Made by a program: the position numbers and the translations under genes
Assembly (NCBI GenBank): GCA_030704665.1
Contig: JAUYID010000009.1
Span: 662,462 to 726,461, forward strand
Reading direction: 5' to 3'
Source of the DNA: a bacterium
GTDB taxonomy: Bacteria > Patescibacteriota > Microgenomatia > Woykebacterales > RBG-16-39-9b
DNA: 64,000 nucleotides
Shown: piece by piece, positions 1,649 through 39,404 of the stretch
How the letters are laid out: each line of letters starts with the position of its first letter
Numbering within the stretch: the stretch's first letter is position 1
The notes under the pieces: generated by a model
Told to the model about the DNA's origin: nothing
What the model saw: only the letters and a program-made list of their open reading frames with translations
Databases searched by the model: none

Positions 1649-2931
1649 CAGGCCTTGTTCCCCACTTTCTTTAATATTAGCTCGGAAAGCTCGTTGCTAT
1701 CTCCTGCTCCCAAATTGAGAATAACGCTACCAAAGTCTACATTTTTGGCAAGGTAAACTGCGGCTTGCTCCTTGGAACCAGTGCTAACCACTTCCTTGTT
1801 CTTTATTGCCCGCGCCAGATCATCTGAAACAAATTTTCCTGCTCTCTCCCGAGAAGCATAGACCGGTAAAAGCACAATATTATCGACTGGGGCTTTTTCG
1901 AAAGCTTCGACAAACTGCGGGAACAGCTTCTCGAGGCGGCTGAAGGTGTGGGGCTGAAAAACGCACCAAATCTTCTCATTGGGGAATTTTTCTCGGGCGG
2001 CTTTTAGAGTCACTGCCACCCCACTGGGGTGGTGAGCGTAATCATCAAAAACTTTGATTCCCTTTGCCTCCCCGCGAAACTCAAAGCGGCGGCTGATACC
2101 GTCAAAGACTTCCAAAGCTTGTTTGGCAATTTCAGAACCAACTCCAAGATAAAGCGCTGCAGCAAAAGCAAGAGAAGCGTTTTCTTGATTAAACTGTCCT
2201 GGAACCCTCAAATTAAAATTTTCTTTGACAAAAGTTTTTTGTTTTTCTTTCTGATTTCTCAGCTCAACTTTTGGACCCAGGAAGAGCGCGCCATCGGAAG
2301 CAACTTGGGCGGCAAAATCTTCAAAGGCTGACTGAACTGCTTCCAGTGAAGTAAAGTAGTCTGGATGATCGAACTCGATGTTGGTAATGATCTCAACTTG
2401 TGGTCGATAAAGCAAAAACTTTTCCGAATACTCATCCGCCTCGATGACGAAAATTTCTCCCTTGCCCGCCCGGTAGTTGCTTTGCCAGTCCGGAACTACT
2501 GCTCCCACGAAAACGCTCGGGTCTAAGCGAGCTTTTTCCAAAATTAAGCCGAGCATCGCTGTGGTTGTACTTTTTCCGTTGGTCCCAGCAACTGCAACGA
2601 CCTTCTTGTCCTGAAGCAAAAATTCCGCGAGAAATTCTTCGGCTATCTTGACTGGCAGTTTTAATCTTTCTGCTTCTTCAACTTCAGAATTTTCCGGATC
2701 GATTTTCTTGGTCGCGTTGGAGACAACCAACATTTCCACGTCTTGCAAATGCTCTTTGCTGCACTCTTTGAAGGTGGGTATCTTCAATTTTAAAAGTTCA
2801 CCGAAAAAGGGTGAGTCCGGATTTAAGTGCTCACAAGCGCTCACCTCAAAACCGTTTTTTTCTGCCAAAGCAGCAACCGCACTGACTGCCGCCCCACCGG
2901 CGAAAATAAAATGAACTTTTTTAGGCTTCAT
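1648..2931 (-). CDS. murC: UDP-N-acetylmuramate--L-alanine ligase
   Basis: 427 aa. N-terminal VHFIFAGGAAVSAVA, the Mur ligase P-loop AVAGTNGKSTTTAML, and DYAHHP. Confidence 0.9.
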   Translation of the reverse strand: MKPKKVHFIFAGGAAVSAVAALAEKNGFEVSACEHLNPDSPFFGELLKLKIPTFKECSKEHLQDVEMLVVSNATKKIDPENSEVEEAERLKLPVKIAEEFLAEFLLQDKKVVAVAGTNGKSTTTAMLGLILEKARLDPSVFVGAVVPDWQSNYRAGKGEIFVIEADEYSEKFLLYRPQVEIITNIEFDHPDYFTSLEAVQSAFEDFAAQVASDGALFLGPKVELRNQKEKQKTFVKENFNLRVPGQFNQENASLAFAAALYLGVGSEIAKQALEVFDGISRRFEFRGEAKGIKVFDDYAHHPSGVAVTLKAAREKFPNEKIWCVFQPHTFSRLEKLFPQFVEAFEKAPVDNIVLLPVYASRERAGKFVSDDLARAIKNKEVVSTGSKEQAAVYLAKNVDFGSVILNLGAGDSNELSELILKKVGNKA

Positions 2932-3673
2932 CTTTACTCCAATGCTTCTCGATAAACTCGGAGGTCAAAGAAAGCTGCTCTGGCGTATCGACTCCAAACC
3001 AGCCTTGAGTATCAATCTTGTGGGTAACTATTTTTGCCTCCTCGGCTACTGCCAACTCAACCAAATCGGTGAGAAAATACTCATTTGCTTTAGTTAACTT
3101 TAAGTTTTTGATACTTTTCTCAAGCCAAACCCGGTCAAATAAGTAACAGCCGTCATTGACTTCTTTGATCCTTTTTTGTTCCTCAGTGGCGACTTTTTCC
3201 TCAACAATAGCTTCGAGATTGCCTTGGTCATCTCGAACAATTCTTCCCAAACCGGTCGGGTTTTCGGTCTCGGCGGTCAAAAAACTGATGGTCGGCTTTT
3301 CCAACAAATGTTGGGCGAGTAAAACTTCCAAAATACTCTTTTGGTAAACATCAGCTCCATAAAGAACCAGAACCTTTTCTGATTTTTCGTTGACTCTTTC
3401 CAAGCCAAGGCGGACTGCTTCTCCTGTTCCTGTCGCTTGTGGCTGAAGAGCGTATTTGTAATTGTCCCCAAGAGCTTCTTTGATTTGCTCTCCCAAATGG
3501 CCAATCACTATTACCGTGTCTTCAATCCCCAACTTTTTCACAACCTCTAGAGAGTAATGGATCATTGGTTTTCCTGCCACTTCATAGAGAGCTTTGGGCT
3601 TTGGTGAGGGTTGACCGGAATTTAATCTAGTTCCTTCTCCAGCCGCGAGAATAATTGCTGCAGTACCTTTCAT
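2921..3673 (-). CDS. Sugar-1-phosphate nucleotidyltransferase, GlmU N-terminal (uridylyltransferase)-like. It lacks the hexapeptide domain.
   Basis: 250 aa. AIILAAGEGTRL is the nucleotidyltransferase signature. The gene sits between murE and murC. Confidence 0.6.
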   Translation of the reverse strand: MKGTAAIILAAGEGTRLNSGQPSPKPKALYEVAGKPMIHYSLEVVKKLGIEDTVIVIGHLGEQIKEALGDNYKYALQPQATGTGEAVRLGLERVNEKSEKVLVLYGADVYQKSILEVLLAQHLLEKPTISFLTAETENPTGLGRIVRDDQGNLEAIVEEKVATEEQKRIKEVNDGCYLFDRVWLEKSIKNLKLTKANEYFLTDLVELAVAEEAKIVTHKIDTQGWFGVDTPEQLSLTSEFIEKHWSKDEA

Positions 3674-8645: not shown

Positions 8646-8676
8646 TTGTTAACAACCTGACTAAATGTGCTATCAT
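8646..8676 (+). promoter_or_regulatory. Candidate sigma70-like promoter for the 8690 gene: TTGTTA/TTAACA ... TATCAT
   Basis: Hexamer-like boxes with a 16-19 bp spacer about 15 bp upstream of the ATG. No SD is evident. Confidence 0.25.
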
Positions 8677-8689: not shown

Positions 8690-9349
8690 ATGAAAAATCT
8701 TTTTGAGACTGAAGAAAAAATATTTACTGGCTTTCTGACGCTGAAGGGAACTGCTTGGGAATGCCTCACTTCTCTGGAAACCTATATTGACTCTCTGTTT
8801 GAGAATCCTCCTGAAGGTTTAAATCTGCAAAATAATCTACTCCTTGGAGAAAATGTTAAGCTCGGTAACAACGTCGTTGTTCTCGGTAAAGCCATCCTCT
8901 GTGCTGGTACCGAAGTTTGCGACAACGCAGTTCTACGCGACGGGGTCATTCTAGGACAAAACTCTTTTATTGGTTTTGGTATTGAGATAAAGCATTGCGT
9001 AATAATGAGCAGGACACGAATTCCTCACCTCAACTACGTGGCTGACAGTATCATTGGTAATGGCTGCAATTTTGGGGCTGGAGTCATCACCGCCAACTGG
9101 AAGGGTGGCTTTGCCAACAAAGAAATAGCAGTAAGCTTGGACGAAGAAAGGTTTGACACTGGTTTAGAAAAATTTGGTGCTCTTGTTGGCGACGGGGTTT
9201 ATTTAGGTTGCAACGCTGTTTTGGATCCCGGAGCAGTCATTGGTAAAGGGAGTCTCATCTACCCCTTGAGTTTGATTCGTGGCGAAGTGCCTGTCAAGAC
9301 AATTGTAAAAAACCACCAAAATCTAGAAATGGTGGCAAAGGCAGAATGA
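8690..9349 (+). CDS. Left-handed beta-helix (hexapeptide) acetyltransferase, GlmU C-terminal-domain-like
   Basis: 219 aa of hexapeptide repeats. The stretch HLNYVADSIIGNGCNFGAGVITANWKGG ... FGALVGDGVYLGCNAVLDPGAVIGKGSLI follows the GlmU acetyltransferase pattern (HL.Y.GD..IG...N.GAG.IT.N..G ... IGD.VF.G). Confidence 0.55.
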   Translation: MKNLFETEEKIFTGFLTLKGTAWECLTSLETYIDSLFENPPEGLNLQNNLLLGENVKLGNNVVVLGKAILCAGTEVCDNAVLRDGVILGQNSFIGFGIEIKHCVIMSRTRIPHLNYVADSIIGNGCNFGAGVITANWKGGFANKEIAVSLDEERFDTGLEKFGALVGDGVYLGCNAVLDPGAVIGKGSLIYPLSLIRGEVPVKTIVKNHQNLEMVAKAE

Positions 9350-10485
9350 ATCTCTACGAATTTGAGGGTCTCCAACTTTTTGATAAAGCTGAAATCCCAA
9401 CTCCAAAAAGAGTTTTAGTTAACTCCACTGAAGAATTAAACAAAGTGGACTTTCCTGGTCCTTACGTCGCCAAGGCTCAAGTCCTTTCCGGAAAAAGAGG
9501 TAAATCTGGACTAATCAAAATTTTAGACAACCTGGACGAGAAAGAAATCGCCAGACTTTTGGCTTCTTCAAATGGTCGCGTTTTGATTGAAGAAAAATTA
9601 GTTGCCGAAAAAGAGTATTACTTGTCAATCACCTACAGCACAAAGCGGCGCCAACCAGTCATTCTTTTTTCTGAAGCGGGTGGGGTCGATATCGAAGCGG
9701 TTAAAAATGTTCAAGAGTTTCCGGTTGATTTAACCCTAGACTTTAGTTTTAAAAAACTTGACCCCGAAGTTAACACTATAGTAGAGAAGCTCTGGAAAGT
9801 TTTTACGCAGAACGATGCTCGCTTGGCTGAAATCAACCCACTTTTTAAGACCAAAGCTGGTCTAGTGGCGGTTGATGCCAAAGTAATTTTGGATGATGAC
9901 GCCCTTTCCCGCCATGAGGATCTCAGCTTTGAGCCGCGTGATGTCATCGGCAAAAAACCAACCGAGGAAGAACTAGCTGCAGCTGAAATCGACAAAGAAG
10001 ACCACCGCGGCTCGGCGGGTAGTAGCTACATGCAGCTAGAGGGAAACATAGGAATCATTGCTGCTGGTGGAGGCGGTTCTCTAGTCAATATGGACGCTCT
10101 GGTCGCTCTAGGAGGCGAGCCGGCTAACTACACTGAGCATTCGGGCAATCCACCGAGAGAAAAGATTGAGAAACTAACTAAGGTTGTTCTGGGAAAAACT
10201 GGGTTAATCGGTTGTTGGCTAGTTGGGGCGACTGCCAACTTCACTGATATGTATGAAACTCTCTCCGGCTTTGTGGATGGGTTACGAGCAATTAAACCGA
10301 AACCTGATTATCCGATTGTAATAAGGCGAGGTGGTCCACGCTGGGAAGAGGCGAAAGCCATGCTTGAAAAAGTTAAACAAGAGGAAGGTTTTGATCTTCA
10401 TATTTTTGGACCAGAAACACCAATGACCTCAACTGCCAAAACCATGGTTGAACTGGCCAACAAATACAAGGAAAATAAGCAGTGA
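9346..10485 (+). CDS. sucC: Succinyl-CoA synthetase beta-subunit-like (ATP-grasp; SucC/AclB/CcsA family)
   Basis: 379 aa. MNLYEFEGLQLF N-terminus and a C-terminal EGNIGIIAAGGGGSLVNMDALVALGGEPANY CoA-ligase domain. Confidence 0.75.
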   Translation: MNLYEFEGLQLFDKAEIPTPKRVLVNSTEELNKVDFPGPYVAKAQVLSGKRGKSGLIKILDNLDEKEIARLLASSNGRVLIEEKLVAEKEYYLSITYSTKRRQPVILFSEAGGVDIEAVKNVQEFPVDLTLDFSFKKLDPEVNTIVEKLWKVFTQNDARLAEINPLFKTKAGLVAVDAKVILDDDALSRHEDLSFEPRDVIGKKPTEEELAAAEIDKEDHRGSAGSSYMQLEGNIGIIAAGGGGSLVNMDALVALGGEPANYTEHSGNPPREKIEKLTKVVLGKTGLIGCWLVGATANFTDMYETLSGFVDGLRAIKPKPDYPIVIRRGGPRWEEAKAMLEKVKQEEGFDLHIFGPETPMTSTAKTMVELANKYKENKQ

Positions 10486-10925
10486 TTAAGGGAATCATTT
10501 TTGACTTTGGTTACACTATCTACGACCCCGACAAACAAAGTCTTCTACCCGAAGTCCTAGCCTTACTTGAAAAACTTAAAGGTAAATTCAAGCTTGCTTT
10601 GATAAGTCGAACTGCAGATCCTGAAAAGCGGCTCCAACAAATTGAAGAGCTTGGGTTAAACAAGTGGTTTGAGGCAGTTGCCGTGACACCGAAGGGAGAA
10701 AACAAGGATTTGGAACAATTTTTGGAAAAACTAAAGCTGTCTCCAGAAGAAACTCTAGTGGTTGGGGATCGAGTCGACAGTGAAATACGCCAAGGCAATT
10801 TACTCGGTATGCAAACTGCGCATTTTAATTATGGTCCAAGACAAGAAATCAAACCTCAGAGTGAGGCGGAAAAAGCTAAGTTTGAAATTAACAATTTGGC
10901 AGAAATTGAAAATTTAATCTTATGA
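10482..10925 (+). CDS. HAD-superfamily hydrolase (small)
   Basis: 147 aa. N-terminal IIFDFGYTIYD (DxD-like motif I) and a distal VVGDRVDSEI (motif IV). Its reading frame overlaps both flanking genes by 4 nt. Confidence 0.55.
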   Translation: MIKGIIFDFGYTIYDPDKQSLLPEVLALLEKLKGKFKLALISRTADPEKRLQQIEELGLNKWFEAVAVTPKGENKDLEQFLEKLKLSPEETLVVGDRVDSEIRQGNLLGMQTAHFNYGPRQEIKPQSEAEKAKFEINNLAEIENLIL

Positions 10926-11818
10926 GCATTTTAATTGACAAAAAGACCAAAGTTCTCGTTCAAGGCATTACCGGCAAAGAAGGCTCAAGAGCGGCCGAAC
11001 AAATGCTTGCTTATGGTACTGAGGTGGTCGCCGGAGTAACTCCGGGCAAAGGCGGGCAAGAGGTTTTCGGTAAAGCCGTTTACAACAGCGTCAAAGAAGC
11101 TTTGGTCAAACATCCTGAGATCAACACTACCTCCATCGCTGTCCCCGGCGTCTTCGCCAAGGCAGCTATGCTTGAAGCAATTGAAAATAAAATTCCTCTC
11201 ATTCATGTCTTGACTGAACACGTTCCAATTCTTGATTCAGCAATTGCTTTCGCGAGGGCAAAAAAAGCGGGGGTAAGAATTGTGGGTCCCAGTTCAATTG
11301 GCATCATCTCACCTGGAGAAGCCAAACTCGGTAGTATTGGTGGCTCGGATCCAAATTTTTCCTACCAATCCGGAGAAATAGGTGTTATTTCCAAATCTGG
11401 GGGCATGACCAGCGAAATCTCTTTCATTTTGAAAAAAACCGGTCTTGGCGTCTCCACTGCCGTGGGAATTGGGGGAGACATGATTATTGGCTCGACTTTT
11501 GCTGATCTGGCCGGAATTTTTAAAGACGATCCAAAAACCAAAGCTTTGGTAATTTACGGTGAGCAGGGTGGGACCTATGAAGAAGACTTGGCCGAGTATT
11601 TGCTCAAATCTAAATTTGAAAAACCGGTCGTGGCTTTCATCGCCGGAATTTTTGCTGAAAGTTTGCCGGCCGGCCAAGCACTGGGACACGCCGGAGCACT
11701 CATTGAATCCGGCAAGGGTAGAAGAATCGACAAAGTCAAAGCTCTTGAGAAAGCCGGAGTTGGAGTTGCAGCTGTTCCGGATGAGCTGCCCAAAGTCTTG
11801 CAAGAAAGGTTAAAATAA
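10922..11818 (+). CDS. sucD: Succinyl-CoA synthetase alpha-subunit-like (SucD/AclA-N/CcsB family)
   Basis: 298 aa. MSILIDKKTKVLVQGITGKEGS is near-identical in pattern to SucD N-termini, and the phosphohistidine loop GHAGAL is present. Confidence 0.8.
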   Translation: MSILIDKKTKVLVQGITGKEGSRAAEQMLAYGTEVVAGVTPGKGGQEVFGKAVYNSVKEALVKHPEINTTSIAVPGVFAKAAMLEAIENKIPLIHVLTEHVPILDSAIAFARAKKAGVRIVGPSSIGIISPGEAKLGSIGGSDPNFSYQSGEIGVISKSGGMTSEISFILKKTGLGVSTAVGIGGDMIIGSTFADLAGIFKDDPKTKALVIYGEQGGTYEEDLAEYLLKSKFEKPVVAFIAGIFAESLPAGQALGHAGALIESGKGRRIDKVKALEKAGVGVAAVPDELPKVLQERLK

Positions 11819-11824
11819 TTCCAC

Positions 11825-12307
11825 ATGCAGTTTGTCGAACCGCCCTCGAGAAAGGCAAAACGTCCAGTCATATCAGCTATTTTTTCCTTCCTTTATCTTT
11901 TAATTTTTCTTTTCGCTCTCAGTTTGCCGTTTCTTTATCAAAACTTGCCTTTCATTAGCTACCTGGGGCTCACAAAAACTTTAGTCCTGGTCCCGGCTGC
12001 GGTTTTGGCTGCCTATGCTTTTTTGATTGCTTTTTCCTTTTTTCTGCGGGGGGACAATTGGCTCCTTCTCTCGATTGTCATTCTTTTCTTCTCCACCCTA
12101 GGAGCGGTTTTTCTTCTTGTCCTCGGCATCATGACTGGGAAAAACCTGCCGAACGGGATTCCGAGCTGTGTTAATGATATAAGTTTGTGTAATTCAACTG
12201 ATGGCTTTACCTTGCTTTCTGCCCTTCTTCTTGGTATATCTATACCTACCCTAGTTCTGAATCTTTTAACTTTTATTGCTGCTTACAAAACTATGGGAAC
12301 CAAATAA
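11825..12307 (+). CDS. Hypothetical polytopic membrane protein (about 4 TM)
   Basis: 160 aa, highly hydrophobic. It lies between the sucD-like gene and the citrate-synthase-family gene. Confidence 0.4.
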   Translation: MQFVEPPSRKAKRPVISAIFSFLYLLIFLFALSLPFLYQNLPFISYLGLTKTLVLVPAAVLAAYAFLIAFSFFLRGDNWLLLSIVILFFSTLGAVFLLVLGIMTGKNLPNGIPSCVNDISLCNSTDGFTLLSALLLGISIPTLVLNLLTFIAAYKTMGTK

Positions 12308-13074
12308 TGCGTATGTCAGAAAAAACTTGGAAAACTGCGATCACAACTTCAAAAGACGGTGTTCCCCAAATCAAAGGTTACAAACTAACTGATTTACTTC
12401 AAAAAGTAACCTTCACGCGAGCAATATTTTTAATCTTGACCGGAGAACTACCTGAGCCAAAGCAAGAAAAAATGCTCAACGCGGTCTTGGTTGCCTCGAT
12501 TGATCATGGGGTTGAAGCTCCCTCAACGACAGTGGCGAGAATAACCGTCGGCGATGGTGTTCCTCTTGCCAACGCGGTTGCTGCCGGTATCGGAGCCATT
12601 GGTAAATATCACGGCGGGGCGGTTGAAGCTGCGGCCAAACTTTTCCAAGAGGCTGTCAAGAACAACGAGTCTGCAGACTCAATAGTTAAACAAGCTAAGG
12701 AAGAGTCTCGCCGTTTGCCAGGCTTTGGCCACAAAGTTTACGAAGTAGATCCTAGAACAGCTGCAATTCTCGAAGTTTCCCAAGAAATTGGTTTTGGCGG
12801 GCCACACACAGAACTGGCGACCAAAATCGAAGAAGAACTCAACCAAGTTTCCAGCAAAAAACTGCCGCTTAATATTGATGGTATCACCGCAGCTGTGCTT
12901 TCTGATCTTGGTTTACCTTGGCAACTTGGTAATGGTTTCTTTGTCATTGCTCGCACTGTTGGTCTGGTCGCTCATGTTCATGAAGAATTAACTGCCGAAA
13001 AACCAGTTTCCCACCGCCTCAGTGAGGAAGACGTCCTCTACAACGGCCCCGAAAGTCGTCAACTACCAAAATAA
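12307..13074 (+). CDS. Short citrate-synthase-family protein, citryl-CoA lyase (CCL)-like
   Basis: 255 aa, versus >370 aa for true citrate synthases. It contains the citrate synthase signature region LPGFGHKVYEVDPRTA, and its length matches the CCL / ATP-citrate-lyase C-terminal domain. Confidence 0.6.
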   Translation: MRMSEKTWKTAITTSKDGVPQIKGYKLTDLLQKVTFTRAIFLILTGELPEPKQEKMLNAVLVASIDHGVEAPSTTVARITVGDGVPLANAVAAGIGAIGKYHGGAVEAAAKLFQEAVKNNESADSIVKQAKEESRRLPGFGHKVYEVDPRTAAILEVSQEIGFGGPHTELATKIEEELNQVSSKKLPLNIDGITAAVLSDLGLPWQLGNGFFVIARTVGLVAHVHEELTAEKPVSHRLSEEDVLYNGPESRQLPK

Positions 13075-13213: not shown

Positions 13214-13771
13214 ATGATTGCCTGGTGTTTCAAGTGTGGTAAGGAAAGGCCGCAAATTGGACGTTGTCCCGTCTGCAAAGGCATGACACGGACACAATTC
13301 CGGTCTTCCAACACTTCCGCGGAATCAACTCCCGATCGTCAGGATCAGGATCGTTTGCTCATCGAAGTCCTAAGTAGCTCTGACGAAATCGATCTTGATG
13401 AACTCTCTGCAGAATTCGACTTGGATCCAACGGAGGTGGACATGACCATCGTCATCGTTGACGACGATCCGACAGTTCGCGTCGCTCTCAAAAACTTCTT
13501 GACCGATTCGGGAAGCAGCACAGTCGCCGTTGAGAGCGCCGGGATAGCCTTACTTGCTCCAGACGGTTATTACGGCAACTTCGACATCGCCGTGATCGAC
13601 GGGCTAAACGGAAGGGCTACCGAGGTGGAGAGACGGATTCTGACCGACAAGCCAAATTGCCGGACTATCTGTTTCAGTGGTGATGAAAAACCCAAAGGCT
13701 TTCGAGGCATCTACGTACCCAAGCCCAATTTCCTCGATCTCACCGCTGCGATTGAAGCCCTGACCGCCTAA
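13214..13771 (+). CDS. Zinc-ribbon plus receiver (REC)-domain protein: a single-domain response regulator with an N-terminal CxxC..CxxC
   Basis: 185 aa. CFKCGKERPQIGRCPVC zinc ribbon and an acidic linker. The REC-like core runs IVIVDDDPTVR...DIAVID...ICFSG...YVPKP. The gene is conspicuously GC-rich and has a strong SD (TAGGAGAAG). Confidence 0.5.
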   Translation: MIAWCFKCGKERPQIGRCPVCKGMTRTQFRSSNTSAESTPDRQDQDRLLIEVLSSSDEIDLDELSAEFDLDPTEVDMTIVIVDDDPTVRVALKNFLTDSGSSTVAVESAGIALLAPDGYYGNFDIAVIDGLNGRATEVERRILTDKPNCRTICFSGDEKPKGFRGIYVPKPNFLDLTAAIEALTA

Positions 13772-23787: not shown

Positions 23788-24711
23788 ATGTATAATGAAA
23801 AGACTGTGCGGCTTTTTTCCTTTCTTCTCCTTAGTTTAATAGTCCTTTCCTTCCCAGGGAGTATCTTCGCCCACGGTTCTGGTCCCCCAATCCTGCTTAT
23901 GAATGGAAAGTATGCAAACAACAACCCTATCTTTACCTCGAGCACTACTGATATTCCCTTGGGAATGGATGTAGCACCGGAAAATTATTTAGTTAATACC
24001 CAGGTTAAGTTTTCCCTGACCCGCAAGAATTTGCCGGCTCCAAAAGAAGTCATCGATCGCTCTACTTTCGGCTGGAACTTTGCTGATGGCAGGCAGGGCA
24101 GCGGGTTAACCGTTTCTCATACCTTTACCAAACCAGGCACTTATATCGTCAAAATCACCGTCAAAGACCCGACTCAAAATACGGTTTTTGATCTCAATAC
24201 CGTGCAGCTGAATATTCTGCCCAACAAAGACTACTCCCTACCGCAAGCCAAGATAAAAATTAACGGTAAGCTGGTTGCAGACCCCCTCAAGGACACTTTC
24301 AAAGTCAAAAAAGGAGACGAAATTGAATTTGATGCGAGCCAATCTGTTGGCGATGGTTTGTCCTACCAATGGGACTTTGGTGATGGGGTGGCACAGAGAG
24401 GAAAGACTATAAAACATACCTACGCTGCCGACTTCTTCCCTAGTTTTCCACTGCTACGGGTCACTGACAAAAACGGCCTCTACAACGATACTTTTGCTGA
24501 GTTTTTTGGTCCTGAAGGTGGAGAAGGCTTTTTCCCAAACCCAGCCTACAAAGTCAATGATAGCAAAACTTCTTCTCCAACTGCTTCAGCAAACTCAAAA
24601 TCTAAAACTGACTTTCCTCTTTTACCTGCTCTGGGAATTGGAGGGGTAGTAGTATTTCTGACTCTAACTTTTTATTTGACCAAGCTTCGTCGCCAAGTGA
24701 AAAATAAGTAA
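23788..24711 (+). CDS. Secreted/cell-surface protein with two PKD-like domains and a C-terminal TM anchor
   Basis: Signal peptide MYNEKTVRLFSFLLLSLIVLSFPGSIFA. WNFADGRQG...HTFTKPGTYIVKITVKD and WDFGDGVAQRGKTIKHTY are classic PKD motifs. Hydrophobic C-terminus followed by KLRRQVKNK. Confidence 0.6.
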   Translation: MYNEKTVRLFSFLLLSLIVLSFPGSIFAHGSGPPILLMNGKYANNNPIFTSSTTDIPLGMDVAPENYLVNTQVKFSLTRKNLPAPKEVIDRSTFGWNFADGRQGSGLTVSHTFTKPGTYIVKITVKDPTQNTVFDLNTVQLNILPNKDYSLPQAKIKINGKLVADPLKDTFKVKKGDEIEFDASQSVGDGLSYQWDFGDGVAQRGKTIKHTYAADFFPSFPLLRVTDKNGLYNDTFAEFFGPEGGEGFFPNPAYKVNDSKTSSPTASANSKSKTDFPLLPALGIGGVVVFLTLTFYLTKLRRQVKNK

Positions 24712-24718
24712 TTTTGTT

Positions 24719-25861
24719 TTAACTCTTTTTTCCCACTTGGTTGTAAACCGCGAGTGTTTGCTCTGCCATTTTCCGCCAGGAAAACTGCCTGACTCTTTCT
24801 TGCCCAGCTTTGGTTAACCCTTCTCTGAGCTTTTTGTTCTCTGCAACTTCTTTTACTTTTTTCGCAAGCTCGGGGGGCTTGTGCGGATCGAAATAGACTG
24901 CCGCAGTAGCGTAAACTTCAGGTAAACTTGAAATTTTGGCCGCAATGACCGGACAGAGACAGGCCATTGCCTCCAAACCCGGAAGCCCAAAGCCCTCAGA
25001 GAGGGAGGGAAAAACAAAGGCGAGCGCCTCCTGAAAAAGAATGACGAGCTCTTCATTGGGAACAAAACCAACAAACTTGACCCGATCTTCCAAACCGAGA
25101 TCTTTAACTTCTTCCTGCACTTTTTCGGTAAAGCGGTTTCGGGCCCCGACGATGACCAGTTTAGTTTTGGGTTCAAGAAGGCGCAGAGCTTCGAAAATGA
25201 CCTGGATGTTTTTGTAAGGAAAAAGGTTTCCCACGTAAAGCAAGTACGGGTCTCTCACTCCGAAGCTCTCCAAAACTTTTTTCTTTTGCCCTTCAGCAAC
25301 TTTCTTTTCTCCAAGGGACAAGAAAATCTGGTCTGCGGCTTCGTAGGTCACTTCAATTTTTGAAGGCTTGACCCCAAAGCTAGCGGCAACTTTCTTTTTG
25401 ATAAATTCCGATGGAACTAGAATTTTGCTTGCCCGTTTCACGGCTTGGTTGGCGACAATCTTGTAACCAGCACTTTTGACAAAATAAATTGGTTTCATTC
25501 TTGTCGTTGCCGCACTACCACCAAACTCGTTGGTAGTCGTGTCATGAACTGTGACGACAAATTTTCCGCCCCAAAGCAAGGGTACGTTGAGGTGGGGGAA
25601 ATGAACCAAATCTGGCTTTTCGCGAGTAAGAACCGCCGGCACGACGACTTGCTCTTTGACCGAGTACCATTTGGCATCAGTGAGGACTTTTTTGAAATTG
25701 GAGCTCTCCGGGTTGAAAAGGGGGTAGTTGTTTTTGCGTAGGAGAACAACATACTCATTCTCTGTGTCAATTTTCACCAACTCGTTTAGTAGATTTTCAA
25801 CGTAACGGCCGATTCCGGTCCCTTCTGGACCAAAGAAACGCGCGTCAATGGCAATTTTCAT
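24719..25861 (-). CDS. Glycosyltransferase, GT4 family
   Basis: GT-B fold (EGFGLPGLEAMA). Start chosen at MKIAIDARF; the track ORF extends 7 codons further upstream. Confidence 0.7.
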   Translation of the reverse strand: MKIAIDARFFGPEGTGIGRYVENLLNELVKIDTENEYVVLLRKNNYPLFNPESSNFKKVLTDAKWYSVKEQVVVPAVLTREKPDLVHFPHLNVPLLWGGKFVVTVHDTTTNEFGGSAATTRMKPIYFVKSAGYKIVANQAVKRASKILVPSEFIKKKVAASFGVKPSKIEVTYEAADQIFLSLGEKKVAEGQKKKVLESFGVRDPYLLYVGNLFPYKNIQVIFEALRLLEPKTKLVIVGARNRFTEKVQEEVKDLGLEDRVKFVGFVPNEELVILFQEALAFVFPSLSEGFGLPGLEAMACLCPVIAAKISSLPEVYATAAVYFDPHKPPELAKKVKEVAENKKLREGLTKAGQERVRQFSWRKMAEQTLAVYNQVGKKS

Positions 25862-26010
25862 TTTGAAGTAACTAGCGAGCAAATATAAATTCGCTTCGCT
25901 CTTTGTAATTTACGATTCTAGATCTCTTCGCTCTCTGCGCTGCAAGCGTCTTCAACCGCGATCCAAATTCTTGGTTTCTTAAGCAAACACCCTTCCTGGT
26001 CGATACGATG

Positions 26011-27171
26011 CTACTTAGACCTGCCTTCTTTCCCTAAAACTTCCCTGATAAGCTTGCCGCTTTCTTCGATCATACGGCTTTTAGTAAATTTTTCCAGAGC
26101 GCTGCTGTAAGCTTCTTGCGTAAACTTCTCTACTTTGATTTTATCATCCAAGGCTTCGAGCAAGGCTTTTGCCAAAGCCCGACTATCCTTCGCCTCGCAC
26201 AGCCAACCACTTTTTCCTTCTTCTATCTCTTCGGGAATACCACCAACTTTTGTCGCAACCACCGGAACATGGGTAAAAATCGCTTCCAGGACTGACAAAG
26301 GCAAACCCTCACTTTCTGACGGTAAAGTGAAGACATCGGCAGCGTAATAAAAATTCAAAGTCTCTTCTCGTTCAATTTTTCCCAAAAAAGTCACCTCTTT
26401 CAACAGACCAAGGTATTTAACTTTGTTTCTTATTTTCTTCTCCATTAACTTATTTCCCCCACCCACTGAAAGCAGATGCACCTCTGGAATTTTTCGTTTG
26501 ACTTCAACCAAGGCCTCCAACAAAGTTTCATAACCCTTGCCCGCGTTAATACGGGCATTGATACCAATCACTGGTTTTTTTTCCAAACCAAGCTTTTTCT
26601 TTGCAGTCAGCTTTTGCTCCTGCCTCGGAGGGACGAAAAAGTGCTCATCGACTCCGTTGTAAACGACTTTTATTTTTTCTTCTGAAACTGAAAAGTCAGC
26701 TAAATATTTTTTCAGAGCCTGACAATCAACCACCACCTGCTCACAAGAATTTAGTTTAGCAACAACTGCCTTTTTGAGAAGCGGGTTTTTTCGCAGCCAA
26801 GCGGGAAATTGAGGATGTTGGATATGAAGATGCGAAAAGCCCTTTTTTACCCTTTCAACCAAAACTAGCTCTTTGTAATCAAAGGTGATGACCAAATCTT
26901 TTTTGGTAGCCGAGGCAAGTTTCTCGGCCATTTTTTTCTGCAACAAAAGGTTTACCGGGTTAAAAAAATTCAAGCCTCGGTAACGACCAAAAGTACTTCC
27001 CAAACTAACTATCTCAGTTTCGACCCCAGCTTTTTCCATTGCCTTTTTAAATGGGCTTTTTTCGGAAGTAACAAATTTCGTCGGAAACTCTTTTTTTAAA
27101 CTGGAGATCAAATCAAGAATTTGGTATTCTGCTCCACCAAAAAAAGGGGCACCGCTAACAAAGATAATCAT
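26011..27171 (-). CDS. Glycosyltransferase, GT4 family
   Basis: 386 aa. ESEGLPLSVLEAIFTHVPVVAT is a GT4 C-terminal motif. Confidence 0.7.
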   Translation of the reverse strand: MIIFVSGAPFFGGAEYQILDLISSLKKEFPTKFVTSEKSPFKKAMEKAGVETEIVSLGSTFGRYRGLNFFNPVNLLLQKKMAEKLASATKKDLVITFDYKELVLVERVKKGFSHLHIQHPQFPAWLRKNPLLKKAVVAKLNSCEQVVVDCQALKKYLADFSVSEEKIKVVYNGVDEHFFVPPRQEQKLTAKKKLGLEKKPVIGINARINAGKGYETLLEALVEVKRKIPEVHLLSVGGGNKLMEKKIRNKVKYLGLLKEVTFLGKIEREETLNFYYAADVFTLPSESEGLPLSVLEAIFTHVPVVATKVGGIPEEIEEGKSGWLCEAKDSRALAKALLEALDDKIKVEKFTQEAYSSALEKFTKSRMIEESGKLIREVLGKEGRSK

Positions 27172-27201
27172 AAACTTTATTTTACCAAGCCTTGGCTAGG
27201 T

Positions 27202-28632
27202 TTACTCCTTTTTCAGAGCCAACCTTGAGCTGGCCAATAGGAAACCGTAAAGAAACCAAGTGTGCGGATAGTAGAGAGTTGAGTTTGTCAGGTTCTGGAA
27301 ACTCACCGCCAAGACTGCCGTCAAACTGCCCAAAACAACAAGTCTCATTTGCCAATCTTTACTTTGAAAGAGACTTAACAAAGCGCTGACAATGAGTGCG
27401 ATGTTAAACCAAAGGAAGGCCCAAAAGCCAAAAACCCCGGTTTCGGCAAGAATCTGTAAATAAACATTGTGGGCTTGGACACGATCTCGTTTAGCTTCGG
27501 GAAGTTTGTAATCGTGATAGCGAAGCATGAAATTTTCCAAACCAACTCCGGTCAGCCAATTGGCTTTGACCATTTTAATACCGGCTTGCCAAATCTGCAG
27601 CCGTTCGGTGTTGGTTGTTGCTTCTGGATCAACACTTGAACTGATTCGCCTTTCCAAATCACTGACGTGGCTTCTGCCTCGCAAACCCCCAAACTGCAAC
27701 GGCCCTATCGCAACCAACAAAACCACCAACATCACTAGACTAGTGAGCCCCACTACAGCAAATTTTGATAGCAAAGCCACAAGGTTAAAGCGCAAGATTA
27801 CAGTCCCAAAAATGAAGATCAACAAAGCTCCCAACAAAGCAATCCAAGCAGCCCGAGAGAAAGTAATAGCCAAGGCTGATATCCCCGCCCCAACTAGGAA
27901 AATTCTCCACCAATTTTCTCTGGTCTTGTCTACCAAAACGGACAACCCAATTGGAAGTGAAACCAAAAGAAAATTCGCCAGAAAATTAGTGTGGTCAAAA
28001 ATCCCTTTGGGGCGGGCAAAAGTTCCTGGATTTAGAATGTTGACCTTGGTATAAAAATCAATGTCCAAATAAAAAGCGACGAACTGATAAATTGCCACTA
28101 CCGTAGTCACTAGTGTTCCAAGCAAAAGAGCTAGAATAGTTTTTAAAACTCGGGACGAATCAGCAACTAGAGCGAAGACGATTCCAAAAACTGTTAAGTC
28201 ATAAACGAGATTGGCAAAAAAACGCAGTGACCGAGTTTGATCGAGAGCAAAATAAACTGATAACAAAGCAAAGGCGAGAAAAACCACCAACGGTAGACTG
28301 AAGGCTCTTGGTGGCAGAGTCGGTAGGCGTCTTTCTTTGACATGATTGTAGAGTAAAAGCAAAAAGGTAATTAGGAAAACGACCATGTGGATCTTGAGAG
28401 AAAAGCCAACGGAAATGTAGATTTGATCGAAGGAAAGACTAAAAACCGCTAGATAAAAAGCCAAGAGATAGTTCTTGAAATAAAAAAAACTGACTAGCAA
28501 GAAAACGGCAAGAGTAAGGAAAGCGAGGTTGAGCTTCAAGATTGCTGCCAGAACCAGCAAAAGATAAATAAGGATTGGTCCAAAAATTCTCGGCTCTTTA
28601 ATTTTTTGGATGAGCAGCTGCAAATTCTTCAT
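27202..28632 (-). CDS. O-antigen polymerase/ligase-family (Wzy-like) polytopic membrane protein
   Basis: 476 aa with more than 10 TM helices and a large periplasmic loop. It sits inside the glycan cluster. Confidence 0.5.
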   Translation of the reverse strand: MKNLQLLIQKIKEPRIFGPILIYLLLVLAAILKLNLAFLTLAVFLLVSFFYFKNYLLAFYLAVFSLSFDQIYISVGFSLKIHMVVFLITFLLLLYNHVKERRLPTLPPRAFSLPLVVFLAFALLSVYFALDQTRSLRFFANLVYDLTVFGIVFALVADSSRVLKTILALLLGTLVTTVVAIYQFVAFYLDIDFYTKVNILNPGTFARPKGIFDHTNFLANFLLVSLPIGLSVLVDKTRENWWRIFLVGAGISALAITFSRAAWIALLGALLIFIFGTVILRFNLVALLSKFAVVGLTSLVMLVVLLVAIGPLQFGGLRGRSHVSDLERRISSSVDPEATTNTERLQIWQAGIKMVKANWLTGVGLENFMLRYHDYKLPEAKRDRVQAHNVYLQILAETGVFGFWAFLWFNIALIVSALLSLFQSKDWQMRLVVLGSLTAVLAVSFQNLTNSTLYYPHTWFLYGFLLASSRLALKKE

Positions 28633-29800
28633 AGGCTCGAATATCCTCCAAGGCTAATTTTTCAAAATCAAAATACTGGCGGGCTTTTTGTGTCTTTTTC
28701 TTCAAACTCAGGTAAAGTTCTTTATCGGTGATGATTTTTGCTAGCTTTTCTTCCAAGTCATTACCATCATCAGCTTTGAAAGTCAGTCCGTTTTCAAAGG
28801 CAACGAGATGATCTACAAAATTGTTCTTTGGCAGAAGTACGGGTAGGAAGCAACCGATAGCGTTGGAGATGCCAACAGTCGGTCGTTTGGGCCAAACAGC
28901 CAGGTCACCAGCAGAATAGTACTGATAAAGATCGCTTTCTTTGACGAATCCAGCGAAATGTACTTGCTTGCTCAAACCAAGTCTTTGAGTCAAAGCCTCC
29001 AGATCAGCTTTGTAGTCTCCCTCACCGACAACCAACACTTTGGCTTGTCCGCTTTTGATCAGATCAGCACCTGCTTTTAATACTACCTCAAAACCTTTAT
29101 CCGCTGCTAGTCTGCCAACCAAAAGGATCAGAAATTCTTTTGTGTTAACTGCAAAGCGCTTTCTGATTTCCTCTCGAGCTTTTTGAGAAAAAAAGAAAAC
29201 TTTGGGATCAAAACCAATGGGAACCAATTTAAGCTTGCTCTCCGGAACCTGCAGATTGTTTTGCAAATACTCTTTGGTGCCGTTGTTGGGACAAAAGATC
29301 ACGTCCGCCTTCTTGTAATAATAGGAATTGGCATATTTTTGAAACAGAAAATAACGAAGAAAACCGGCAACTGATTTGTAAGGCTTATTCGACTCTGGTT
29401 GGATCTGATCGTCCCCAATCAGAAAGTAACCCAGCTCGTCTTTGTATCTGGCCCCGAGAAGAGTCAAACCCTGATTGGGCGCGTAAGTGTGGACAATATC
29501 CGGTTTGATTTTCGCCAAAGCTTCTTTAACTCCGAAAGCAAAGATACTTTCCTTGATTTCAACCCTGGCCGCGAGACGGTGAATCTTGATTCCCTCGAAA
29601 ACGCTCTCCCCTGCCTGCCTTTTTCTGCTCGCCGGCAGATCTAAACGCTTCGCCATAACTTGATAATCAGGAAAAGGGAAAAATTTGTTGGAAGTAATGA
29701 CGTGAACCTCGTGCCCGGCTCGAACTTGGTTGAGAGCGATGTAATATTCTTTGTATCCCAACTCTGGTTGGAAATAGCCGATAAGATGAACGATTTTCAT
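28598..29800 (-). CDS. Glycosyltransferase, GT4 family
   Basis: 400 aa. GT-B C-terminal domain (VGEGDYKADLE..., AGDLAVWPK). Confidence 0.65.
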   Translation of the reverse strand: MKIVHLIGYFQPELGYKEYYIALNQVRAGHEVHVITSNKFFPFPDYQVMAKRLDLPASRKRQAGESVFEGIKIHRLAARVEIKESIFAFGVKEALAKIKPDIVHTYAPNQGLTLLGARYKDELGYFLIGDDQIQPESNKPYKSVAGFLRYFLFQKYANSYYYKKADVIFCPNNGTKEYLQNNLQVPESKLKLVPIGFDPKVFFFSQKAREEIRKRFAVNTKEFLILLVGRLAADKGFEVVLKAGADLIKSGQAKVLVVGEGDYKADLEALTQRLGLSKQVHFAGFVKESDLYQYYSAGDLAVWPKRPTVGISNAIGCFLPVLLPKNNFVDHLVAFENGLTFKADDGNDLEEKLAKIITDKELYLSLKKKTQKARQYFDFEKLALEDIRAYEEFAAAHPKN

Positions 29801-30870
29801 GGTCTAGCTTCTTCCAAAAATTCCTTTATCTTCTCAACAAGAAGACCACTAGCATTTCCAGCACCAAAACTAGTTTTCTGCCCGCCTCGGGATTGAAAAT
29901 TTCTAATCGCCTCAACTATTTTTTCTTTGTCAGACCCCACCAAGAGGTTCCAACCATCCTCGATAGTCTCCACCCACTCGGTTTCTTCTCGCAAAGTAAT
30001 GCAAGGAATTTTGAGAAAATAGGCTTCTTTTTGCACTCCGCCTGAATCAGTCAGAATTTTTTTGGCGTTAGCTTCAAGTTTTAACAAATCAAGATAACCA
30101 AGAGGTTCAATCGCCAGTACATTTTCGGGAATTTTTGTTTCTGAATCTTCAAGAGCCTTTTTTGTGCGTGGATGCAAAGGCAGAACAATTTTTTCCCCAC
30201 TCTGAAGAAAACCTTCAAGAATATTTTGTAAATTTTTAATCGAATCAGTGTTTTCAGCCCGGTGGATTGTTGCTAGTAAGTAATTTTTTTCTTCTAAAGC
30301 CAACTTTTCAAGAATTGTGGAATTTCTTTCTGCTAAATCTTTGTAGTTAATGATACTGTCAAACATAACATCACCAACTTTCCAAACTCCTTTTGTGATG
30401 CCTTCCTTTTTTAGGTTTTCTACTGCCGTCTCCGTCGGGCAAAAAAGTAGCGCTGAAAGGTGATCAGTCAGAACTCGATTGATCTCTTCAGCCATAGATC
30501 GGTTGAAACTACGCAAACCAGCTTCCACGTGGGCAACTGGATAGTGAAGCTTGGCGGCTGCAAGACCACCTGCCAAGGTTGAGTTTGTGTCTCCATAAAC
30601 CAGGACCAGATCTGGATGCTCTTTGACAAGCACTTCTTCTAGACGGACGAGCATTTCTCCAGTTTGTTTGCCTTGGCTTAAGGATCCAACGCCCAATTTA
30701 TAGTCAGGCTCCGGAATCTCCAACTCCTCAAAAAAAGCCTCTGACATATTTGGATCGTAATGTTGCCCGGTGTGGATTAAAACTTCCTGAAACTTTTTTC
30801 GTAATTCTTTTGAAACAACCGCTGCTTTGATAAATTGCGGTCGAGCTCCGACGACACTTACTATTTTCAT
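29797..30870 (-). CDS. UDP-N-acetylglucosamine (or UDP-2,3-diacetamido-glucuronate) 2-epimerase, WecB/WbpI family
   Basis: 357 aa. MKIVSVVGARPQFIKAA, HVEAGLRSFNR and the GDTNSTLAG motifs of non-hydrolysing 2-epimerases. Confidence 0.8.
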   Translation of the reverse strand: MKIVSVVGARPQFIKAAVVSKELRKKFQEVLIHTGQHYDPNMSEAFFEELEIPEPDYKLGVGSLSQGKQTGEMLVRLEEVLVKEHPDLVLVYGDTNSTLAGGLAAAKLHYPVAHVEAGLRSFNRSMAEEINRVLTDHLSALLFCPTETAVENLKKEGITKGVWKVGDVMFDSIINYKDLAERNSTILEKLALEEKNYLLATIHRAENTDSIKNLQNILEGFLQSGEKIVLPLHPRTKKALEDSETKIPENVLAIEPLGYLDLLKLEANAKKILTDSGGVQKEAYFLKIPCITLREETEWVETIEDGWNLLVGSDKEKIVEAIRNFQSRGGQKTSFGAGNASGLLVEKIKEFLEEARP

Positions 30871-32030
30871 ATTGTTAAACGCTTGTAAATAGCGAACAGT
30901 TTTTTTTCTTCAAGCTGCCAATTATACCTTCCCTCAGCTGCCTTTAGGGCATTGTTTTTCATTTTTTCATAAACACCTACCTCATTCAAAACTTGGTTGA
31001 TTTTACTCGCAATCTCTTTGGGGTTCTCTGGGTCAAAGACAACACCAATCTCTTCTTCCTCCACCAACTTTTTCATTTCCTTCATATTGCTGACCGCAAC
31101 CGGAAGTCCTGCAACTAAGTATTCAAAAAGTTTATTTGGAGTTGCCAAGTATTGATTTAAATTTGTTTTTAACATAGGAACAACCCCAAGATCAGCTGAA
31201 CTTGTATAATCCAACAACTGCTCGAGTGGCACTGATTCTAAAAAAACAATTTTCTTTTCAATACCAAGATTCCTCGCCAATTTTTCTAGTTGCGTTTTGA
31301 TTGGTCCCCCACCCATCAAAACTAGACCAAAGTTTTCCGGCCAGTAGACAACTGACTCAAGAAGCTGCCTTAAACCTCGCAGCCAACCAAAGGCTCCTTG
31401 ATACAAAACTACTTTTGTTCCTGGTCCAAAAAGGTCTTTAAACTTGTCCCTACTGGTCACCACGCCACTTCTGGGAGGAACATTGAGCAAAGTTTCAACT
31501 GCTTTAATCTTGTAACGCTTTTTCAATTCTTCCTTGATTGACTCATTGACCGTGATGACCAAATCAACTTTTCCAATAAGCTTTCTTTCAGAAAGACCCA
31601 TAATCAAAAACTTCAGTTTTAACAATAGATATTTGAACAAATTCATGTTTTTTCTATCCAAGGTTTCTAAGTAAAGCTCATGAGAATCATAAACCACTTT
31701 GGAGTTATTAGCTTTTGCTGCTAAATAACACAGAGGTAAAACAGGAAGGTCGTGGGCATGATAAACATCTGCTTTCTCTGCTTTTAATTCTTTCAGCGCC
31801 TTTTGCAAAGAAAAAACAAATCTCCAAGGTTTATAGATAGAGAAACAATCATAATTTGCCGAGGCTCTTTTAACTAAGAATTTGTTAACCTTCTCCTCAC
31901 TTGAATTTTTGACTGTTTTCTGAGCGTAAACTACTACTTCATAACCTGCTTTCGCTAAAGAAGCGGCCTCTTTGTTGACTCGGCTGTCATGATCCAAAGA
32001 ATTGTCAACGACCATACAAATTTTCTTCAT
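30867..32030 (-). CDS. Glycosyltransferase, GT4 family
   Basis: 387 aa, GT-B fold. Confidence 0.65.
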   Translation of the reverse strand: MKKICMVVDNSLDHDSRVNKEAASLAKAGYEVVVYAQKTVKNSSEEKVNKFLVKRASANYDCFSIYKPWRFVFSLQKALKELKAEKADVYHAHDLPVLPLCYLAAKANNSKVVYDSHELYLETLDRKNMNLFKYLLLKLKFLIMGLSERKLIGKVDLVITVNESIKEELKKRYKIKAVETLLNVPPRSGVVTSRDKFKDLFGPGTKVVLYQGAFGWLRGLRQLLESVVYWPENFGLVLMGGGPIKTQLEKLARNLGIEKKIVFLESVPLEQLLDYTSSADLGVVPMLKTNLNQYLATPNKLFEYLVAGLPVAVSNMKEMKKLVEEEEIGVVFDPENPKEIASKINQVLNEVGVYEKMKNNALKAAEGRYNWQLEEKKLFAIYKRLTI

Positions 32031-36072: not shown

Positions 36073-36075
36073 GAT

Positions 36076-38354: not shown

Positions 38355-38357
38355 TTT

Positions 38358-39395: not shown

Positions 39396-39404
39396 AATGA
39401 AAAC

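Follow-up and report, generated by a model that had tools for sequence, protein, structure and literature searches.

The DNA analyzed here (below called the window) is a stretch of 64,000 nucleotides (nt) from contig JAUYID010000009.1 of a bacterium classified in Patescibacteriota (assembly GCA_030704665.1). At positions 8690-13074 of its + strand we have found a probable six-gene operon of the Candidate Phyla Radiation (CPR), whose core is probably the two-enzyme citrate-cleavage system known from Aquificae, composed of citryl-CoA synthetase (CCS), with a large (β) and a small (α) subunit, and citryl-CoA lyase (CCL). The initial annotation had proposed a split CCS accompanied by CCL, with a plain succinyl-CoA synthetase (SCS) beside unrelated genes as the alternative. 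Curated family cut-offs, sequence motifs, indels and neighbor-joining (NJ) trees agree with the proposal and speak against the alternative, as both subunits fail the SCS cut-offs and join CCS in a clade with 100% bootstrap support. The prediction that region 9346-13074 encodes CCS (β and α) and CCL rather than SCS is supported by these sequence comparisons.

Citryl-CoA synthetase subunits

The β subunit (379 amino acids (aa), positions 9346-10485, + strand) comprises an ATP-grasp domain, matched by Pfam ATP-grasp_2 with 91 bits, and a citrate-binding domain of the type found in ATP-citrate lyase (ACL), matched by Pfam Citrate_bind (PF16114) with 89.7 bits versus a cut-off of 26.8. Its scores on the SCS β models are under half of the cut-offs (172.7 versus 375.55 for TIGR01016 and 167.4 versus 370 for NF001913). 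In comparison with sequences of known structures, the large subunit of CCS (6hxq_B, 196 bits) ranks above the β subunit of ACL (6hxj_A, 155 bits), which in turn ranks above the β subunit of SCS (119 bits). Two motifs of the citrate loops, ANFTD (aa 297-301) and RRGGP (aa 327-331), are present in β. In the alignment they appear as GATANFTD and VIRRGGP, to be compared with GAIANFTD and VRRGGP in ACL from Chlorobium and Methanosaeta, GGTANNTR and VRRNGP in CCS, and FGGI(T/V)R and VR(V/L)xGT at the same positions of SCS. They also match, in position and in residue identity, N346-F347-T348 and R378-R379-G380-G381-P382 of human ACLY, and the segments N346-T348 and R378-P382 reportedly line the citrate site of that enzyme (Sun and coworkers are said to have described this in 2010).

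The α subunit (298 aa, positions 10922-11818, + strand) is made of the Pfam domains CoA_binding and Ligase_CoA, and carries at aa 255-259 the phosphohistidine loop GHAGA that had been pointed out in the initial annotation. On the NCBIfam models of SCS α it remains below the cut-offs (296.9 versus 336 and 293.7 versus 353.2). Two indels, IGGSDP (aa 139-144) and FAESLP (aa 244-249), are common only to α and the small subunit of CCS (6hxq_A); their general forms, IGG(S/K)DP and F(A/Q)ESL, are absent from all four SCS α sequences displayed in the alignment. Besides, α has SKSGGMTSE (SKSGG(M/L)T in CCS) in place of the SRSGTLTYE of SCS.

For both subunits, NJ trees with 100 bootstraps were calculated, in which the references were rebuilt from PDB alignments and supplemented with E. 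coli SucC and SucD from RefSeq. In each tree the protein from the window forms, with 100% bootstrap support, a clade with CPR homologs, DPANN homologs and CCS of Hydrogenobacter thermophilus, which excludes 3 to 4 SCS references and, in the case of β, also 2 ACL references. Phylogeny of the SucC-like and SucD-like proteins against SCS, ACL and CCS had been suggested as a check of the initial annotation, and it places both proteins with CCS and apart from SCS.

Two points weigh against the assignment and have to be balanced with the evidence above. One is that the overall score of α is higher for the SCS α subunit from Aeropyrum (2yv2, 278 bits) than for the small subunit of CCS (247 bits; ACL follows with 154 bits), so that α is assigned to CCS on the grounds of its indels, motifs, tree and partner genes rather than on the overall score. 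The other is that the trees are of the NJ type, with few references, some of which are partly truncated or come from local PDB alignments. The same score of α, together with the fact that the top-scoring NCBIfam models are SCS models and that annotation in the style of KEGG Orthology often labels such genes as SCS, is what can be said for an ordinary SucCD pair situated beside unrelated genes, in which case the short protein of the citrate synthase family would be a degenerate citrate synthase. This possibility appears to be effectively refuted at the level of sequence, as both subunits fall under the SCS cut-offs, β has the ACL/CCS motifs and α the indels found only in CCS, the trees separate the subunits from SCS with 100% support, CCL scores above a curated cut-off and has an intact active site, and the order β-α-CCL is kept across two domains of life. 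Since both subunits belong to the CCS clade and the active site of CCL is intact, the initial proposal stands. To judge from its sequences, the system is of the CCS/CCL type and not of the ACL type: α and CCL are unfused, and β is placed outside the ACL clade.

Citryl-CoA lyase

The third core protein, CCL (255 aa, positions 12307-13074, + strand; 253 aa according to NCBI, where the start is placed at the ATG at 12313), is a short protein with the citrate synthase fold that lacks the N-terminal part of citrate synthase: Pfam Citrate_synt (PF00285) covers only positions 162-351 of the 357 positions of the profile. It passes the curated cut-offs of two NCBIfam models, including that of citryl-CoA lyase (280 bits versus 212 for NF004869, and 199.8 versus 193 for NF004868). 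Its best match among known structures is CCL of H. thermophilus (6hxp, 232 bits, E-value 7e-68), with which it aligns end-to-end on the 268-aa chain; citrate synthases in the PDB all score at most 90 bits, which makes the score of 6hxp ~2.5 times higher. The earlier suggestion that this protein has the size of a citryl-CoA lyase and is not a citrate synthase is borne out by the NF004869 and 6hxp matches.

The GFGHKVYEVDPR signature reported in the initial annotation was found at aa 139-150. The residues H102 (HGGA), H142 (GFGHKVY), R150 (DPR), D191 (NIDG) and R216, which comprise the catalytic His/His/Asp and the Arg residues for oxaloacetate binding, are invariant in 16 homologs. In the PDB alignments they coincide with motifs that citrate synthases also have, namely HGGA, GFGHRVY..DPR and NVD. 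H102, H142 and D191, which we take to be the equivalents of H274, H320 and D375 in pig citrate synthase, are all kept, which answers the question of whether the short protein has the catalytic His and Asp residues. On this basis, the protein is predicted to cleave citryl-CoA to acetyl-CoA and oxaloacetate.

The pair might also act on a related acid, such as 2-methylcitrate (methylcitryl-CoA would then be split into propionyl-CoA and oxaloacetate) or another hydroxy-di- or tricarboxylate. Easy interconversion is a feature of the families of citrate synthase and methylcitrate synthase, and the NCBIfam models of 2-methylcitrate synthase give 113 bits with CCL; the CPR/DPANN clade is distinct from the only characterized CCS, and stand-alone CCL homologs in Zixibacteria and Ignavibacteria suggest functional diversity. 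We nevertheless regard a substrate other than citrate as highly improbable, given that ACL has the identical citrate-site motif (ANFT/RRGGP) and that CCL aligns end-to-end with 6hxp with all residues for oxaloacetate and acetyl-CoA conserved.

Organization of the operon

All five ORFs (open reading frames) of the initial annotation are present on the + strand, with the coordinates and sizes given there. In addition to β, α and CCL, they comprise a 147-aa capless protein of the HAD superfamily (positions 10482-10925, + strand, GTG start) between β and α, and a 160-aa conserved four-helix membrane protein (positions 11825-12307, + strand, hereafter TM) between α and CCL. The junctions were read directly from the sequence: β and HAD overlap by 4 nt (GTGA), HAD and α by 4 nt (ATGA), α and TM are separated by a 6-nt gap, and TM and CCL overlap by 1 nt (TAATG). 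The statement that HAD and TM are both interleaved with 4-nt overlaps holds for HAD, on both of its sides, and fails for TM. Overlaps were indeed seen, as expected for the single translationally coupled operon proposed earlier, but the extent given to it was too small: upstream there is a sixth gene, operon gene 1 (positions 8690-9349, + strand), which encodes a 219-aa acetyltransferase half of the GlmU type with a left-handed β-helix (LbH) and overlaps β by 4 nt (ATGA). Region 8690-13074 is therefore most likely one six-gene, translationally coupled operon.

A promoter-like site (TTAACA-16 nt-TATCAT with a TG extension, positions 8649-8676, + strand) is situated 14 nt upstream of LbH, between mraZ and LbH, and it is the sole intergenic match on the + strand; it represents a consensus match only, and the total number of matches in the region is not above that in shuffled sequences. 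The consensus scan revealed no promoter-like matches on the + strand within the operon, and no convincing terminator was found after CCL. In the whole 64-kb window there is no tRNA gene and no Rfam family at the gathering threshold.

The same proteins are annotated as genes in public assemblies of this contig, where NCBI names β 'ATP citrate lyase citrate-binding domain-containing protein', α 'CoA-binding protein', CCL 'citryl-CoA lyase' and HAD 'HAD family hydrolase', while LbH and TM are called 'hypothetical'. Identical proteins are found on a Logan contig (SRR13727534) and on an NCBI contig of 938,369 bp (MDP2671580-MDP2671583 and neighboring proteins). Among named organisms, Candidatus Woykebacteria, Daviesbacteria and Curtissbacteria, of the Microgenomates group of Patescibacteria/CPR, are the closest relatives.

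A 185-aa ORF further downstream (positions 13214-13771, + strand) was considered as another member of the operon and rejected, as it is not conserved beside CCL in the relatives. Its product has a zinc-ribbon-like N-terminal start (CxxC...CxxC) and a weak, sub-threshold match to a receiver domain.

Distribution and gene order in other genomes

When GTDB species representatives were searched with a profile of CCL, at least 592 species gave matches, and the best 80 loci were compared. In ~30 of them β, α and CCL are colinear, and all of these are from CPR or DPANN, save for three from a deeper group. In ~50 of the 80 (from Zixibacteria, Ignavibacteria, Calditrichota and others) CCL has neither β nor α within 8 kb. 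The stand-alone CCL homologs, which occur also in Acidobacteria and Thermoplasmata (~50 loci in the range L005-L078), are 41-49% identical to CCL from the window. The deeper β-α-CCL group (L040, L059 and L081, from Hydrothermota, Aminicenantes and TA06) shows ~30% identity to β from the window, and in the NJ trees it falls outside the CCS clade and also outside the ACL references; its β subunits are unusually long in L040 and L059 (519-570 aa), and have 393 aa in L081.

In the relatives, the operon occupies a common slot, flanked by mraZ on one side and by the genes for glycyl-tRNA synthetase (GlyRS), SpoIIM and RecO on the other, whose content varies. The full arrangement LbH-β-HAD-α-TM-CCL is found in the window and in L087. 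HAD is missing from L004, L082 and L084 (LbH-β-α-TM-CCL); L083 has the same order β-α-TM-CCL on a contig that starts at β, where LbH is not assessable. Both HAD and TM are missing from L002, L003 and L007 (LbH-β-α-CCL). Finally, the slot contains HAD and TM only in L090 and L091, and TM only in L092. Scanning every ORF of the retrieved loci with profile HMMs confirmed this presence matrix. LbH, β, α and CCL are present or absent together, and HAD and TM vary independently.

The junction between α and CCL is a hot spot for inserted unrelated genes (L011, L014, L015, L027, L029 and L076). For example, L011 has genes for a thioredoxin-like lipoprotein and a protein with seven transmembrane helices at this place, L014 and L027 have small basic ORFs, and L076 has genes for two secreted proteins. 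Some of the taxonomic labels deserve a comment. L003 (DASVHF010000076.1), labeled as Nanoarchaeia, has a bacterial mraZ, LbH-CCS-CCL and GlyRS that is 76% identical to that from the window, and probably represents a contig from CPR that was placed in an archaeal metagenome-assembled genome by the binning. The label Gammaproteobacteria of L007, L016, L042, L074 and L080 also looks wrong; one of these is a 915-kb chromosome with a CPR-type locus.

HAD-superfamily and membrane proteins

The HAD protein matches Pfam families Hydrolase, HAD_2 and Hydrolase_like above their cut-offs and has no cap domain (147 aa compared with 227-230 aa in capped relatives). Its motif I reads F-D8-F-G10-Y-T12 (FDFGYT), with Gly at the position Asp+2 instead of the Asp of DxDx(T/V), while in the distant relatives with a cap it takes the canonical form, DLDDT or DADDT. 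This Gly is invariant in seven close homologs, and so are the nucleophilic Asp, S42-R-T44 (motif II), K75 (motif III) and G95-D96...E101 (motif IV), which argues that the change at Asp+2 is a selected state and not a sign of decay. An exhaustive profile search gave 7545 matches to the capless family of ~147 aa, so the rarity suggested by the 10 matches from a word-indexed search was an artefact of that tool. Motif I of the top 150 members is DxNxT in 74, DxGxT in 18 and DxDxT in 14, and this clade, with mostly Asn or Gly at Asp+2, looks like an uncharacterized and possibly non-phosphatase group. One of the family members (P0213, 384 aa) is fused to a TruB-like pseudouridine synthase with the HAGTLDPLASG motif.

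The HAD gene is absent from the 80 GTDB loci and from the closest relatives, and it was considered to be a recent lineage-specific insertion. This idea was overturned when HAD was found between β and α in distant lineages (L087, L088 and L089), and it is also contradicted by other lineages in which HAD stands with TM and without CCS/CCL. Altogether, the order β-HAD-α with overlapping stop and start codons is seen in four lineages, where HAD is 53-56% identical to that from the window, and in one case (P0172, 561 aa) β and HAD are joined in frame into a single protein, which shares 44% identity with β from the window over residues 1-402 and 47% with HAD from the window over residues 410-552. 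One fusion sequence and a few loci suggest that there may be a facultative physical or functional link between HAD and CCS β.

It could be argued further that HAD is a facultative accessory of CCS β and not a hitch-hiker, serving as a phosphoryl acceptor or hydrolase that removes citryl-phosphate or the phospho-enzyme, in proofreading or in regulation, or as a structural partner. The recurrent gene order, the fusion, and the invariance of the nucleophile, of motifs II-IV and of Gly at Asp+2 in all close members are compatible with such a role. We consider it unlikely, however, as HAD is absent from most CCS/CCL operons, including those of the closest relatives (76-77% CCL identity), the locus contains HAD and TM but not CCS/CCL in L090 and L091, the capless family at large has many members and is fused to unrelated partners such as the TruB-like protein, and the single fusion could be a result of sequencing or assembly read-through.

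TM has no Pfam or NCBIfam match. Its family has 38 members of 155-171 aa, in which P113 and the loop C115-x6-C122 are invariant. The AlphaFold model (pLDDT 88) consists of four long helices and has no significant neighbor in the PDB (best E-value 0.14, generic four-helix membrane bundles), and the gene occurs at the same locus both with and without CCS/CCL. TM was considered as a candidate citrate transporter and rejected, because it has no family match and no significant PDB neighbor, and is kept where CCS/CCL are absent. The citrate module needs neither HAD nor TM, and the two are not obligatorily tied to it, because some relatives keep HAD and TM without CCS/CCL and most CCS/CCL operons lack HAD and TM.

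Acetyltransferase gene and cell-envelope neighborhood

The LbH protein matches Pfam Hexapep with 64.7 bits and corresponds to the C-terminal half of archaeal-type GlmU (positions 221-392 of NCBIfam TIGR03992, E-value 6e-39). It keeps equivalents of H363, Y366, N377, A380, N386 and K392 of E. coli GlmU, with HLNYVAD at aa 113-119, and the region of R333/E349/K351 of the E. coli enzyme does not align with it. Presumably, H363, Y366, N377, N386, K392 and S405 of E. coli GlmU are the catalytic His and the residues that bind the substrates. LbH is situated upstream of β on the same strand, directly or closely, in ~15 of the 17 evaluable CPR loci and in none of the ~50 loci with stand-alone CCL, and it is missing together with CCS/CCL from the same syntenic slot in L090-L092. 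The upstream gene of L087 encodes a full-length bifunctional GlmU-like protein composed of a nucleoside triphosphate (NTP) transferase and LbH, and in L016 and L074 there is apparently an NTP-transferase with LbH, fused or adjacent.

A stand-alone N-terminal (uridyltransferase) half of GlmU is encoded elsewhere in the window, within the dcw/mur cluster (250 aa, positions 2921-3673, - strand). It matches positions ~2-240 of ~450 in the NCBIfam GlmU models (E-value 2e-55) and is 36% identical to residues 7-233 of E. coli GlmU. Its linkage to the operon would be one of context, and it is likely to provide the partner activity of LbH. An origin of the two halves by fission of a single GlmU gene was considered and rejected, since the half encoded at 2921-3673 resembles bacterial GlmU, and BLAST shows no similarity between it and the N-terminal part of the bifunctional protein from L087, whose C-terminal half matches LbH from the window. 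The two halves are of different ancestry, bacterial-type and archaeal-type, and therefore do not derive from a simple fission of one gene.

The operon lies back-to-back with the dcw/mur cell-wall cluster, and the window as a whole represents a cell-envelope island. On one side of the operon there are genes for MurB, Mur ligases, a penicillin-binding protein, FtsL, RsmH and MraZ, and further along the window those for GlmS, UDP-GlcNAc 2-epimerase, a WbpABED-like set, many glycosyltransferases, Wzy and a flippase. Three hexapeptide acetyltransferases are encoded in the window, two of them besides LbH.

At ~24700-43400 (- strand) there is a long same-strand cluster for an envelope polysaccharide, which resembles the WbpABED route to di-N-acetylated uronic sugars. 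It includes GT4 glycosyltransferases, Wzy, UDP-GlcNAc 2-epimerase, a flippase, a PglF/CapD-like dehydratase, two GFO/IDH/MocA oxidoreductases, a DegT aminotransferase, hexapeptide acetyltransferases and a UDP-sugar dehydrogenase. The GC content drops to 0.38-0.39 at 30-36 kb, markedly below the rest of the window. One of the few enzymes of the central-metabolism type in the window is a FAD-linked oxidase similar to GlcD/YdiJ, of the D-2-hydroxyacid dehydrogenase type (positions 62268-63914, - strand), which scores below all curated cut-offs.

Predicted reaction and physiological role

By analogy with the established chemistry of the SCS/ACL/CCS superfamily, ATP would phosphorylate His256 of α, and the phosphoryl group would be passed to citrate bound on β to give citryl-phosphate. 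Attack of CoA on this intermediate would yield citryl-CoA, which CCL would split into acetyl-CoA and oxaloacetate.

Gene order, co-variation and neighborhood point to a possible role, which we favor tentatively: the operon may use scavenged citrate to supply the acetyl-CoA with which amino sugars are N-acetylated. Supply of acetyl-CoA is favored because of the 4-nt overlap of LbH with β, the co-variation with the acetyltransferase half of GlmU and the neighborhood of envelope genes. A bolder version, which we consider unlikely, would have CCS/CCL removed, in a set of ultra-small CPR bacteria, from the reductive tricarboxylic acid (TCA) cycle and hard-wired to a GlmU-type acetyltransferase as a dedicated line from citrate through acetyl-CoA to N-acetyl sugars for the synthesis of cell wall and envelope, fed by citrate scavenged from a host or the environment, with HAD recruited in some lineages, attached or fused, as a new accessory of β, acting for instance on citryl-phosphate or on the phospho-enzyme.

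Several observations count against a system that cleaves citrate on behalf of the acetyltransferase. The link to GlmU would be a case of guilt by association; LbH was found in none of 8 DPANN loci, scores below the cut-off of full-length GlmU (as expected for a half protein), and in the window it has Cys at the equivalent of S405, which is Ser in the relatives. The 64-kb window, part of a genome of ~0.94 Mb, yielded neither a transporter for citrate nor an enzyme that would consume oxaloacetate. It had been suggested to look for the rest of the TCA cycle in the genome; no TCA-cycle genes were found among the ~57 larger, non-overlapping ORFs scanned in the window, and TCA genes as well as further sources of acetyl-CoA (PFOR, ACS) may be present outside it.

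The enzymes could also work in reverse, with CCL condensing acetyl-CoA and oxaloacetate, and CCS making citrate and ATP, as a form of substrate-level phosphorylation in a fermenter. The reaction of ACL/CCS is known to be near equilibrium, CPR bacteria are generally described as fermenters without respiration, neither the window nor the operon revealed an importer for citrate, and TM has no transporter-like fold. Moreover, ATP-citrate lyase of Desulfobacter reportedly runs in the ATP-yielding direction (this is attributed to Moller, Schauder, Fuchs and Thauer, 1987). This direction appears quite improbable to us: there is no visible use for citrate, as neither aconitase nor isocitrate dehydrogenase is present among the scanned ORFs of the window, oxaloacetate would be needed in stoichiometric amounts, and an acetyl-CoA-consuming acetyltransferase that leads the operon and co-varies with it fits production of acetyl-CoA better.

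The usual description of CPR bacteria and DPANN archaea is that they are devoid of the TCA cycle. Reading genes of this kind as citrate-cleaving CCS/CCL alters the metabolic picture of many such organisms with reduced genomes, and suggests that episymbionts scavenge citrate as a source of carbon and acetyl-CoA. The coupling with the GlmU acetyltransferase next to the dcw cluster offers a testable idea of how acetyl groups may be supplied to peptidoglycan precursors.

Comparison with known systems

The enzymes themselves are not new, as CCS/CCL in CPR and DPANN have been already described in a bioRxiv preprint from 2022 (10.1101/2022.10.25.513756) and NCBI already names CCL. According to the passages of that preprint on these lineages, CPR and DPANN sequences annotated as SCS or citrate synthase are monophyletic with CCS or CCL, and the genes from the window belong to this CPR/DPANN group. 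The same passages frame the group in terms of the evolution of the reductive TCA cycle and of syntrophy, and make no mention of a linkage to GlmU, of the position next to dcw, of HAD or of TM. The misreading of these genes as SCS persists, as a survey of DPANN genomes from 2026 continues to list 'succinyl-CoA synthetase alpha' for genomes that lack citrate synthase. What appears to be new is that the enzymes share an operon with a GlmU-type acetyltransferase next to the dcw cluster, and also the mosaically distributed capless HAD protein without Asp at Asp+2, once fused to β, and the conserved 4-TM protein.

The window system resembles CCS/CCL of Hydrogenobacter in that the same domain content is distributed over three polypeptides and that both the loop of the phosphohistidine and the His/His/Asp triad are intact, and it is there that β and CCL have their best solved relatives. 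It differs in that the CCS subunits are smaller (379 versus 429 aa for the large one and 298 versus 353 aa for the small one) and in that the citrate-loop motif is ANFT, as in ACL, rather than ANNT. Furthermore, the genes belong to an ultra-small, non-autotrophic bacterium of the CPR, in which no context of the reductive TCA cycle is visible, and they share the operon with a GlmU-type acetyltransferase, a capless HAD protein and a 4-TM protein.

With prokaryotic ACL (AclBA, EC 2.3.3.8; Chlorobium limicola 6hxj and Methanosaeta concilii 6hxi) the system would share the overall reaction, and it shares the three modules, the identical citrate-binding motifs GAxANFTD and VRRGGP, and the match to Pfam Citrate_bind. 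However, in ACL the α and CCL modules are fused into a protein of ~600 aa, whereas in the window α (298 aa) and CCL (255 aa) are separate, with the gene of the 160-aa membrane protein between them; besides, β groups with CCS, and ACL scores lower than CCS (155 versus 196 bits for β and 154 versus 247 bits for α). The compact CPR enzymes (379, 298 and 255 aa) represent a minimal version of the ACL machinery, which bears on the question of the origin of ACL and citrate synthase from CCS/CCL-like ancestors.

Finally, SCS (SucCD, EC 6.2.1.5) has in common with the window pair the superfamily, the subunit architecture, the phosphohistidine mechanism and the gene order β-then-α, but its β motifs GGIVRC and VRLEG, of the general form GGI(V/T)R(C/A)D and VR(L/V)xG(T/N), and its α motif SRSGTLTYE are replaced by ATANFTD, IRRGGP and SKSGGMTSE, and the pair from the window is phylogenetically separate from it and is partnered with CCL rather than with TCA genes.

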